A stretch of DNA of 13,080 nucleotides from IMG/VR virus record IMGVR_UViG_2563366976_000005, one strand, 5' to 3'. Positions within the stretch are counted from its first letter, which is position 1; each line of letters opens with the position of its first letter. The notes below the pieces were generated by a model. That model made no database searches. It worked only from the letters and a program-made list of their open reading frames with translations, and had not been told where the DNA came from. The position numbers and the translations under genes are program-made. This document shows, in pieces, positions 10,542 through 11,167 of this stretch. The stretch is from a virus (taxonomy: Duplodnaviria; Heunggongvirae; Uroviricota; Caudoviricetes).

Positions 10542-11081
10542 ATGCAACCACTTACATACCAACAGACTAGCGGATTTATTCCGACTGCGGTGATAAATCG
10601 TTCTCAAACAAAACAAGCTCCAGGCCACGAAAAAATCCGTGATGCCGTCCGCGCCTGGTCGGCTGTAGATAATCAGGATGTCGTTGCCGCACTCATTGTG
10701 AATGAGTATCGGGAGCAGGGCGACGGCACCATCGATTTCCCTGATGATGTCAGCCGTGCACGCCAGAAGCTGTTCCGCTTCCTCGATAACAAATTCGATT
10801 CTGAAAAATACCGAAATAACGTGCGTGAACTGACCCCGGCAATTCTGGCGGTACTACCGCTGGAATATCGCGGTTACCTGGTTGAGCAGGATAGCTTCAT
10901 GACTCGGTTGGCTGAAATGGAAAAGGAACTCAGTGAGGCAAAACAGGCTGTCATTCTCAACGCACCACGCCACCAGAAACTGAAGGAAATGAGTGAAGGT
11001 ATTGTGTCGATGTTTCGTGTGGACCCGGATCTGGCTGGTCCATTAATGGCGATGGTGACCACCATGCTGGGGGCAATATGA
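10542..11081 (+). CDS. Hypothetical protein in the cII position (179 aa); possibly a CII/YdaT-like lysogeny regulator, function unverified
   Basis: ATG at 10542 with AGGAG; lies between cro and O; no clear HTH seen by eye; sequence not recognised. Confidence 0.65.
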   Translation: MQPLTYQQTSGFIPTAVINRSQTKQAPGHEKIRDAVRAWSAVDNQDVVAALIVNEYREQGDGTIDFPDDVSRARQKLFRFLDNKFDSEKYRNNVRELTPAILAVLPLEYRGYLVEQDSFMTRLAEMEKELSEAKQAVILNAPRHQKLKEMSEGIVSMFRVDPDLAGPLMAMVTTMLGAI

Positions 11082-11167
11082 CAGGTTCAGAAATGGCGAA
11101 AGTCGGTCTGCGGGAACAGAACCGACTTTCAGGTGCAAATCGTAACACACTCATTGCGGGAGGAATT

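Follow-up and report, generated by a model that had tools for sequence, protein, structure and literature searches.

A phi80/YdaT-type CII regulator and a predicted leftward small RNA at the cII-O junction of a lambdoid coliphage

The immunity and replication region

The window analyzed here, a stretch of 13,080 nucleotides from a Caudoviricetes record (IMGVR_UViG_2563366976_000005), is 100% identical to Escherichia phage PhiR26_1 and is the immunity and replication region of a lambdoid coliphage. The control region is ordinary lambdoid, if under-annotated, and the CII-like gene is placed in a complete cI-cro-X-O-P module (Table 1). The cI-like gene is divergent from the cro-like and CII-like genes, and the CII-like gene is flanked by the cro-like gene on its 5′ side and by the O-like gene on its 3′ side. 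In addition to the matches listed in Table 1, the cro-like gene also has a Pfam HTH_3 match. An earlier note on this DNA had placed an ORF of 179 codons in the cII slot and had described its product as nearly twice the size of lambda CII; both statements hold, as the ORF is confirmed, with an ATG start and AGGAG 7 nt upstream, and its product is 1.85 times as long as lambda CII (97 aa). An N-like gene adjoining cI was sought and none was found. The ORF at 8838-9218 on the minus strand was considered as N and rejected; it belongs to PHROG 3135, where function is unassigned, and has a signal-peptide-like start.

Table 1. Genes and features of the immunity and replication region, in window coordinates
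Feature	Coordinates	Strand	Evidence
cI-like repressor (HTH + S24 peptidase)	9448..10137	-	Pfam Peptidase_S24 (1e-18), HTH_3 (5e-13); annotated cI in PV340555.1
cro-like repressor, YdaS type	10242..10472	+	Pfam YdaS_toxin (6.6e-17), P22_Cro (7e-5); PHROG 35 transcriptional repressor
boxA-like sequence CGCTCTTTAACAA	10485..10497	+	Read from sequence; sole match in window
Direct repeat TTGACT-N6-TTGATT	10503..10520	-	Sole perfect TTGAYT-N6-TTGAYT match in window
CII analogue, phi80/YdaT type, 179 aa	10542..11081	+	Pfam, PHROG, fold match, identity to phi80 CII
Predicted small RNA, 61-69 nt	11089..11157	-	Covariance model of 47 loci; predicted ends
Hairpin B (14-15 bp, one-base bulge, loop UCCC, then UUUCGCCAUUUCUG)	11098..11130	-	Folding, covariation, strand bias
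Hairpin A (GCAA 11157-11154 paired with UUGC 11138-11135, variable loop)	11135..11157	-	Pairing across loci
Predicted pO-like promoter	11165..11193	-	Promoter scan; lambda pO layout; conservation
O-like replication initiator	11168..12097	+	PHROG 277, Pfam Phage_rep_O (PF04492), TIGR01610; GGGAGG at 11158-11163
P-like replication protein	12094..12771	+	Pfam Phage_lambda_P (8.5e-62)

The hairpin after the CII-like gene and the predicted leftward RNA

The bulged stem agtcggtctg/cagaaccgact, described in the earlier note, lies exactly at 11101-11110 / 11117-11127 and is part of a full helix of 13 bp with a one-base bulge (11098-11110 / 11117-11130). Its folding is beyond chance on either strand, with energies of -18.8 kcal/mol (z = -4.5) on the plus strand and -20.2 kcal/mol (z = -6.1) on the minus strand, and none of 200 shuffles folded as well on either one. 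Across 47 distinct related loci, 97.7% of the cells of hairpins A and B together are paired and nine pairs are changed on both sides, values matched by none of 500 shuffles; slid controls reached approximately 40%. Hairpin B contributes 13 pairs (98.5% paired, eight with changes on both sides) and hairpin A four pairs (95% paired, one with changes on both sides), the latter occurring in other loci as GUGAAUU/AAUUCAC or GUUAC/GUAAC. Both hairpins are independently predicted by RNAalifold.

The earlier note assigned it the position of tR1, and it could accordingly be a tR1-like rightward terminator or attenuator on the plus strand, with the replication genes dependent on antitermination or read-through. 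The plus-strand RNA does fold, the 86 nt ahead of O, in which the hairpin lies, are a genuine untranslated spacer, and a hairpin in the pR message could be an RNase site or a 3′ stabiliser after processing. However, the T-run past the stem on the plus strand is as short as the note had stated (merely TTTC), and the mean T count in the 12 nt past the stem is 2.2 on the plus strand vs 5.0 on the minus strand. Across the loci, 99.3% of the cells are paired on the minus strand vs 91.5% on the plus strand, and the minus-strand fold is the more stable in 47 of 47. The G-U pairs of the hairpin occur on the minus strand only, and many relatives carry C-A mismatches at these places on the plus strand; T11103C, found in approximately 45 of 82 close relatives, yields G-U on the minus strand and a C-A mismatch on the plus strand. 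Furthermore, tR1 of lambda, a Rho-dependent terminator, shares the cro-cII interval with nutR and rutA/rutB (PMC5869508; nutR/rut features at 38249-38301), and it is in this interval that the window has its boxA-like sequence, whereas the window hairpin follows the CII-like gene; the cII-O junction in lambda is the site of leftward oop (pO-tO), and the homologous phi80 element is annotated as a leftward RNA. The common ground between tR1/nutR and the window hairpin is that of a transcription signal in the pR operon, nothing more, and a rightward terminator before O is improbable. The better reading of the hairpin is on the minus strand, where it would form the 3′ end of a leftward RNA. Hairpin B is proposed to be a tO-like terminator or a 3′ stability hairpin, and a small leftward antisense RNA most likely has its terminator in this structure after the CII-like gene. 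In the window, the U tract that follows is weak and interrupted (UUUCGCCAUUUCUG), and a simple terminator scan called the hairpin on neither strand; minus-side T-rich tails are kept across the hairpin family.

The predicted RNA would begin near 11157 and end near 11097, by analogy with phi80, or near 11089, past a second U run. It lies antisense to the spacer that separates the CII-like gene from O, and its predicted 3′ end falls 8-16 nt short of the stop codon at 11079-11081; overlap with the CII-like ORF was looked for and none was found in the window. Upstream of it, the predicted leftward sigma-70 promoter overlaps the O start codon and comprises a -35 element TTGAAT (11193-11188), a 17-nt spacer, an extended -10 TG (11173-11172), and a -10 element CATAAT (11170-11165), whose CAT lies opposite the start codon of O (ATG 11168). 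The promoter scan gave two matches vs 2.8 expected from shuffles, and the pO-like match alone is not above chance. The motif is conserved: TGnCAT(A/T)(A/C)T is present in 46 of the 50 distinct contexts, ahead of at least eight unrelated downstream genes, and the second codon is always NCA where a TGnCATAAT-like -10 element overlaps the start codon. A covariance model (R1), built from the 47 loci with no phi80-type sequence included, scores the window at 95 bits and phi80 M3 RNA at 39.7 bits (E 4e-8). Among the window relatives searched with this model, the element was located in 24 of 24, always on the minus strand and where the following gene begins; this gene belongs to the replication module where checked; in nine of the 24, an extra gene stands between the element and the CII-like gene.

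At the level of this model, the window RNA is homologous to phi80 M3 RNA (ncRNA PHI80_R1, 60 nt), which is annotated as "M3 RNA, homolog of lambda oop RNA" and has been reported as a substrate of RNase P (PMC11143913, PMC5499578). The two share the strand and the place at the cII-O junction, and in both the 5′ end lies 8 nt past a CAT(A/C)(A/C)T -10 element over the O-like start codon (CATACT for the annotated end in phi80) and 11 nt from the O-like ATG. Each has two hairpins with U-rich sequence after the second, and each stops short of the stop codon of the upstream gene, by 15 nt from the cII stop in phi80. The window represents a diverged sequence type, with GCAA..UUGC in hairpin A vs GUUAC..GUAAC in phi80, a one-base bulge in hairpin B, unlike phi80 M3, and a much weaker U tract (UUUCGCCAUUUCUG vs UUUUUCUUUUC). 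A conserved (G/A)CCA past the long hairpin might mark an RNA processed by RNase P in the manner of phi80 M3.

The likeness to lambda OOP is looser. The lambda oop gene, spanning pO to the tO hairpin (PMC5869508), likewise encodes a small leftward RNA where cII meets O. This RNA has a similar size and a two-hairpin shape, and the promoter region (TTTGTCATAATGAC..) is alignable, with the -10 element of TTGAGT-17-CATAAT placed on the ATG of O. The body of OOP is not alignable to the window RNA; the promoter/leader alone aligns, at 22 bits and with the hairpin deleted from the alignment. Lambda oop has a strong U6 tract, whereas that of the window is weak. In lambda, OOP and the 3′ end of cII share 52 nt (PMC5869508); the predicted window RNA, by contrast, is confined to the intergenic spacer and shares no nucleotide with the CII-like ORF, so the lambda mechanism is not transferable unchanged. 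An OOP-like RNA has been detected by RNA-seq in prophage BTP1 (PMC7067206). Scanning the window against Rfam (E up to 1) produced only two chance-level matches, both elsewhere; this negative is uninformative because the oop region of lambda itself also gives no match.

There is very little probability that the hairpin is instead coding sequence, belonging to a 339-aa O that would start at ATG 11078 and overlap the CII-like stop codon. The frame is open from 11078 into O, and this start is annotated in PV340555.1 and NC_049946.1; however, PHROG 277, PF04492, TIGR01610, and lambda O begin at Met 11168, where GGGAGG serves as the Shine-Dalgarno sequence. Position 1 of the PHROG 277 profile aligns with residue 1 of the short form, MANTAEIFNF at this start corresponds to the lambda O start, and the DNA similarity of Salmonella phage SEN34 O to the window starts at 11159. 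Furthermore, the spacer in relatives with O-like genes measures 87-104 nt, with differing upstream frames that contain stops; the compensatory stem changes would produce non-conservative amino-acid changes; the internal ATG (11093) becomes AAG or AAA in relatives; and the same element precedes unrelated genes. The annotated start at 11078 is probably an over-extension of 30 codons across the RNA gene, the true start being ATG 11168. A small ORF (MAKVGLREQNRL..) across the hairpin was also rejected, as its ATG is not conserved and the stem changes are non-conservative in the peptide.

It is equally hard to credit that the palindrome acts as DNA, either bound by a protein dimer or serving as a signal in replication or recombination: it adjoins the replication module, and in lambda the replication signal ice is located within cII, but pairing is kept where sequence is not (arm pairs GTCGGTCTG/CAGAACCGAC, GCCGCGGTG/CACCAACGGC, GCCACTCTG/CAGAGTGGC, and GCCCTTCTG/CAGAAGGGC, the 3′ arms being those of the minus strand), and the asymmetric G-U/C-A pattern and the conserved one-sided bulge are signatures of RNA.

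The CII-like protein and its putative sites

The 179-aa protein, which the earlier note had termed unrecognised, belongs to a known family. It matches Pfam PF06254 (YdaT_toxin) with an E value of 4.3e-30 and 104.5 bits, against a gathering score of 21 bits, and its residues 17-179 match PHROG 163, "CII-like transcriptional activator", with an E value of 1.4e-66. It is 66% identical to phi80 CII (E 7e-92), is annotated as cII in PV340555.1 and 15 other phages, and has relatives of 179-180 aa in 714 clusters; NCBIfam has no model for it. The note had likewise seen no obvious HTH by eye; the fold, however, matches the POU-like HTH regulator YdaT (8BT1, 3C4R; PMC9986795). By sequence, these two PDB entries are the sole significant matches, at E 5e-4 to 1e-3, and a Foldseek search with an AlphaFold2 model of moderate confidence (mean pLDDT 63.8; core 70-85) again returned them as the sole significant matches, with a probability of 1.0, a TM score of 0.65 on the target, and 27-28% identity. 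In the model, helices span residues 29-40, 45-58, 70-82, 88-104, and 119-138, and residues from approximately 29 to 110 are modeled as a POU-like HTH domain with the recognition helix at approximately 70-82 (SRARQKLFRFLDN). The long helix 119-138 is followed by two additional C-terminal helices at 145-176, and the N-terminus (residues 1-25) is predicted to be disordered, yet is conserved.

Judged by sequence, the protein is a known phi80/YdaT-type CII regulator and a long-form member of the YdaT family. Phi80 CII (PHI80_49, 180 aa) has the same position, between a cro-like gene (gene 30) and an O-like gene (gene 15), and a small-RNA gene downstream, as in the window; the cI/cro immunity module and the specificity of O differ between the two phages, as do a third of the CII residues. 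CP-933P YdaT (8BT1) and 3C4R share with the window protein both PF06254 and the recognition-helix motif R-x-x-Q-K-(L/I)-F-R-(F/W)-L-D. The YdaT-family context is also present, the window gene lying directly 3′ of a YdaS-type cro and divergent from an S24 repressor; CP-933P YdaT likewise follows a YdaS-type cro and is a functional equivalent of CII (PMC9986795). The solved structure of YdaT is a DNA-binding HTH tetramer, which footprints an operator and binds DNA between ydaS and ydaT (PMC9986795), and the same article relates, citing Jurenas 2021, that overexpressed YdaT activates a PRE-like promoter. The differences concern length, 141 aa for YdaT vs 179 aa, with an additional N-terminus of approximately 25 aa and the two additional C-terminal helices (approximately 40 aa) in the window protein, and sequence similarity, which is weak (E ~5e-4).

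The Pfam names YdaT_toxin and YdaS_toxin, together with the toxicity of Rac YdaS/YdaT on ectopic expression (PMC5917428 and papers cited there), could suggest that the protein is the toxin of a toxin-antitoxin pair and not a regulator. We give this scarcely any weight: the idea stems from a prediction algorithm, without experimental support, and the genetic context is that of Cro and CII (PMC5917428, PMC9986795), as has been argued for YdaS/YdaT themselves (PMC5917428); the solved structure is that of an operator-binding regulator (PMC9986795), the gene sits in a complete lambdoid module, and overproduced lambda CII is toxic too (PMC5869508).

The phi80/YdaT-type regulator resembles lambda CII in gene position (cro - X - O) and, presumably, in its role as an activator of lysogeny establishment. 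Size and fold differ, and homology to lambda CII was not detected: Pfam Phage_CII (PF05269) gave no match at E up to 1, and hhalign of a 25-sequence profile against lambda CII returned a probability of 1.3%. Of the two families with which the earlier note proposed comparison, YdaT is thus matched and lambda CII is not. Since the proteins are not homologous, the decision module uses a different protein from that of lambda, in partial support of the suspicion that the module may work differently here.

Candidate sites for the regulator were sought in the DNA around its start. The direct repeat between the cro-like and CII-like genes has a third TTGACT nearby (10534-10539, minus strand), and one of its half-sites equals the TTGATT half-site footprinted for CP-933P YdaT (PMC9986795); speculatively, the repeat is a place where the CII-like protein could bind, at a putative PRE-like promoter directed leftward. 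It is kept as a lead only because the pattern TTGAYT-N6-TTGAYT was picked post hoc, after the sequence was seen, and the repeat is absent from relatives with other cro modules. The best match in a search for a CP-933P-type YdaT operator (TTGATT-N6-AATCAA) had two mismatches, which is at chance level. Conserved DNA in the first eight codons of the CII-like gene, reading TTGATA-N6-TGATTG on the minus strand in relatives, might be a PRE-like site in the fashion of lambda, inseparable from protein-coding constraint. Neither a binding site nor a PRE-like promoter for the CII-like protein is established, because the region upstream of its gene is mosaic among relatives. The boxA-like sequence in the same cro/CII-like interval, where lambda has nutR/tR1, has a putative function by analogy; it is not significant alone, since 44 of 200 shuffles also contain at least one match.

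Proposed working of the module and its significance

As a whole explanation, a phi80-type CII combined with a leftward M3/oop-like RNA from a pO-like promoter is, in our judgment, probable. To extrapolate from its homologues, the CII-like protein would be made from pR after infection, would bind repeated sites near the cro/cII junction, and would activate leftward transcription of the repressor gene; as an all-helical regulator in which oligomerisation helices follow the POU-like HTH, it would thus replace lambda CII functionally without being homologous to it. What follows on the RNA, namely its expression, its exact ends, its target, and its effect on physiology, is our inference. An RNA of approximately 60-70 nt would be transcribed leftward from the pO-like extended -10 promoter, with hairpin B as its 3′ end, and over its whole length would be complementary to the part of the pR transcript that connects the CII-like gene with O. 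Most likely, it would pair with this transcript and expose the duplex to cleavage of the kind that RNase III carries out on the lambda cII-O message. The CII-like message upstream would then be uncoupled and destabilised, O expression would be modulated, or both. A further effect could come from convergent transcription, which could reduce the read-through from pR that reaches the replication genes.

A broader and more doubtful proposal is that M3-like RNAs form a widespread structured antisense family in enterobacterial lambdoid prophages, one for which Rfam has no model and whose main job is control of the O-type initiator or of pR read-through. This job, and not down-regulation of CII, may be the main one because, in the loci examined, the element goes with the start of the replication gene and not with the CII-type gene, and never overlaps a CII-type ORF.

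For annotation, the protein should be labeled a phi80/YdaT-type CII regulator, neither "toxin" nor unknown; the records of this phage group lack the predicted small RNA gene, and O is probably 30 codons too long in several GenBank records. For the biology of the group, the lambda pO/oop arrangement would be kept in phages with a non-homologous CII, where the predicted RNA no longer overlaps the CII-type ORF, and these phages may therefore provide a natural comparison for what oop-type RNAs really do.

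The CII-like protein and the lambdoid early region

The protein and the hairpin noted between the cro-type and O-like genes are both real and both of known kinds, the protein being a CII of the phi80/YdaT type and the hairpin most likely the terminator hairpin of an RNA of the phi80 M3/lambda oop type. The gene order of the window is that of a standard lambdoid early region, and Escherichia phage PhiR26_1 (PV340555.1) is 100% identical to the window over the 1.2 kb tested.

Positions of genes, sites and predicted elements in the window
Feature	Position	Strand	Remark
bet-gam-kil		leftward	first in early-region order
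ORF of PHROG 3135 (function unknown)	8838-9218	-	126 aa; first ORF left of cI
cI-type S24 repressor gene	9448-10137	-	second in early-region order
Inverted repeat, probable operator	10179-10203		cI/cro intergenic region
cro-type gene	10242-10472	+	
boxA-like sequence	10485-10497	+	between cro and CII-like gene
Direct repeat, candidate binding site	10503-10520	-	TTGACT-N6-TTGATT
Third TTGACT copy	10534-10539	-	just ahead of CII-like start codon
CII-like ORF	10542-11081	+	179 aa
O start in GenBank	11078	+	339 aa
Predicted M3-like RNA	11157 to about 11089-11097	-	ends inferred
Hairpin B	11098-11130	-	13 bp and one bulged base; stem first seen at 11101-11110 / 11117-11127
Hairpin A	11135-11157	-	
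Most likely O start	11168	+	309 aa
Probable origin iterons	about 11520-11600	+	inside O gene
O-like gene, P-like gene, ren			downstream of CII-like ORF

The earlier note had described the protein as unrecognised and lacking an obvious helix-turn-helix (HTH). However, it is matched by Pfam YdaT_toxin (PF06254; 104.5 bits, threshold 21) and by PHROG 163, "CII-like transcriptional activator" (E 1.4e-66), and its nearest named relative is CII of phage phi80 (66% identity, full length, E 7e-92). Near-identical genes occur in 16 phage records, mostly labeled cII or CII-like activator and in two cases only "hypothetical protein". In the PDB, sequence search led to two entries alone, 8BT1 (YdaT of prophage CP-933P) and the related 3C4R; these were also the only significant Foldseek matches (probability 1.0; TM 0.65, target-normalised) of an AlphaFold2 model obtained with 25 homologues as input; this model is all-helical, with a mean pLDDT of 63.8 and values of 70-85 at residues 30-110. 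An HTH is present, since the recognition-helix motif R-x-x-QK-(L/I)-FR-(F/W)-LD is common to the protein and 8BT1/3C4R, and it escaped the eye because the loop between helices 2 and 3 is long in this family. On sequence grounds, lambda CII is not homologous to the protein, which has no match to Pfam Phage_CII and an hhalign probability of 1.3%.

The 8BT1 structure comprises a POU-like HTH domain and a long tetramerisation helix, and CP-933P YdaT, whose footprint covers the operator TTGATT-N6-AATCAA between ydaS and ydaT (PMC9986795), has been described as the functional equivalent of CII (PMC9986795; also PMC5917428). Compared with CP-933P YdaT (141 aa), the window protein adds a conserved N-terminus of ~25 residues, predicted to be disordered, and two C-terminal helices. 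Relatives of 179-180 aa conserve the protein over its whole length, the first 25 residues among them, and a good Shine-Dalgarno sequence (AGGAG) lies 7 nt upstream of the ORF. Like phi80 CII and YdaT, the protein would activate the leftward transcription that establishes repressor synthesis, as an oligomer with an HTH. The proposal that the decision module differs from that of lambda holds only in the sense that had already been described for phi80 and YdaT. Separately, the first eight codons (10542-10565, MQSLTYQQ) are conserved despite the predicted disorder, and their minus-strand DNA reads TTGATA-N6-TGATTG in most relatives.

In the cro-cII junction, the direct repeat matches TTGAYT-N6-TTGAYT, a pattern defined post hoc, and no other sequence of the window does so perfectly. 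Its half-site is that of the footprinted CP-933P YdaT operator; the repeat may be the binding site of the CII-like protein. It is absent in relatives with other cro modules. The boxA-like sequence CGCTCTTTAACAA occupies the place of lambda nutR/tR1 and is followed by no boxB-like hairpin (fold -3.6 kcal/mol, z -0.8); at this site, a genuine lambda nutR (L104) or a GCCGC-loop-GCGGC hairpin occurs in some relatives. Further left, the perfect 9-bp inverted repeat ATGGTTGTT-N7-AACAACCAT is probably the operator of the window's immunity type, and was called on both strands by the terminator scan solely owing to its symmetry. The PHROG 3135 ORF takes the rex/N place of lambda, and its start, MRKILIAAMMASV, is like that of a lipoprotein or of a protein with a signal peptide; it may serve in lysogenic conversion, as a moron. 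Beside cI, the analysis recognised no gene resembling N.

A conserved, covarying and strand-biased hairpin

The stem-loop lies exactly where the earlier note had placed it and, in its extended form (hairpin B), folds far better than shuffled sequences on both strands (z -4.5 plus, -6.1 minus). A hairpin of the same shape was found downstream in nearly all of 80 near-identical viral contigs and 67 diverged genomic loci (39-75% protein identity), the latter from many Enterobacteriaceae. Pairing is kept while the sequence varies (GTCGGTCTG/CAGAACCGAC, GCCGCGGTG/CACCAACGGC, GCCACTCTG/CAGAGTGGC, GCCCTTCTG/CAGAAGGGC; minus-strand 3' arms). In an alignment of 47 distinct minus-strand sequences (A2), standard pairs make up 97.7% of 799 cells and both-sided changes occur in 9 of 17 pairs, values of pairing and covariation that none of 500 column shuffles matched; sliding the partner by 1-3 columns reduced pairing to ~40%. 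RNAalifold independently returned the same two hairpins, A and B.

That the hairpin is read on the minus strand is suggested by four results: G-U pairs, a T-rich tail, a promoter motif and placement. Many minus-strand G-U pairs correspond to C-A on the opposite strand, as with the T11103C variant present in ~45 of 82 close relatives; the pairing of hairpin B without its loop-closing pair is 99.3% on the minus strand versus 91.5% on the plus strand, and the minus-strand fold is the more stable in all 47 sequences. The 12 nt past the stem contain on average 5.0 T on the minus side (for example, TTTCGCTTTTTTTGG and CCTTTACCTTTTTTTG) versus 2.2 on the plus side. The conserved promoter motif TGnCAT(A/T)(A/C)T is kept in 46 of 50 distinct contexts, ahead of at least 8 unrelated genes; all of these have NCA (for Thr, Ser, Ala or Pro) as their second codon, the source of the TG. 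Finally, a covariance model of the M3-like element found a minus-strand match in 24 of 24 window relatives searched, adjoining the start of the next gene wherever checked; 9 of them have an extra small gene between the element and the CII-like gene. In loci L098, L111, L115, L120, L128-L130 and L150 (about 3040-3300), an extra gene inserted there (MNHIEFIEKHVRE...) contains a poly-G run of about 6-11 G, varying among loci, either a tract that may be prone to slippage or possibly an effect of noisy sequencing.

Homology to phi80 M3 and the start of the O gene

The earlier note wrongly assigned the hairpin to the tR1 position. In lambda, the order is cro-nutR-tR1-cII-O, and the cII/O junction holds the oop gene, running leftward from pO to the tO hairpin (PMC5869508); the lambda record places rutA, nutR and rutB between cro and cII. 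Lambda pO reads TTGAGT-17 nt-CATAAT on the minus strand, its CAT complementary to the start codon of O, and the window has TTGAAT-17 nt-CATAAT over ATG 11168, with a TG ahead that gives an extended -10. In phi80 records, "M3 RNA, homolog of lambda oop RNA" is a 60-nt minus-strand RNA between cII and gene 15 (O-like), and its 5' G, as annotated, comes 8th after CATACT, at a distance of 11 nt from the ATG of gene 15; the same spacing in the window leads to G11157 for ATG 11168. The covariance model, containing no phi80-type sequence, matched phi80 M3 at 39.7 bits (E 4e-8). It also matched lambda exactly at the pO/oop start (22 bits), where promoter and leader alone align, the body of lambda oop not being homologous to the predicted RNA. 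RNA-seq of another lambdoid prophage has revealed an OOP-like RNA (PMC7067206). Rfam gave no match in the window, which is uninformative because Rfam has no oop/M3 model and lambda itself is likewise unmatched.

The U tract past the hairpin is weak in the window (UUUCGCCAUUUCUG). Directly past hairpin B, most sequences have (G/A)CCA and then U's (A2 columns 96-99; window 11097-11094, minus), resembling the RCCA tail of RNase P hairpin substrates. Two papers name M3 RNA as a substrate of RNase P (PMC11143913, PMC5499578); a link of the tail to such processing is speculative.

The GenBank O start (PV340555.1, NC_049946.1) overlaps the CII-like stop codon and would put the hairpin inside coding sequence. 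O profiles begin at the Met of 11168, this ATG carries a GGGAGG Shine-Dalgarno sequence and corresponds to the lambda O start (MANTAEIFNF versus MTNTAKILNF), DNA similarity to the O gene of Salmonella phage SEN34 starts at 11159, and the spacer ahead of the O-type gene in relatives measures 87-104 nt, its frame varying and containing stops; therefore, ATG 11168 is most likely the start, and the 30-codon extension (11078-11167) an annotation artefact over the predicted RNA gene. Inside the O gene, repeated TTACC(C/T)GAATCAGGTAAG-like units are probably origin iterons; a weak Rfam "rliD" match at about the same place was rejected as spurious.

The predicted RNA would pair with the stretch of pR message that separates the CII-like gene from O, and the duplex would be a nuclease target, as is the duplex of lambda OOP with the cII-O message for RNase III (Krinke and Wulff, as cited in PMC5869508); cutting would lower expression of the CII-type protein and/or O. 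Unlike in lambda, and as in phi80, the predicted RNA stays clear of the CII-type ORF, an important difference, and so may act on the junction or on the leader of O instead of the coding part of cII. The analysis additionally yields an un-annotated putative small RNA gene and a probably mis-annotated O start, and the covariation-backed alignment could seed an Rfam family.
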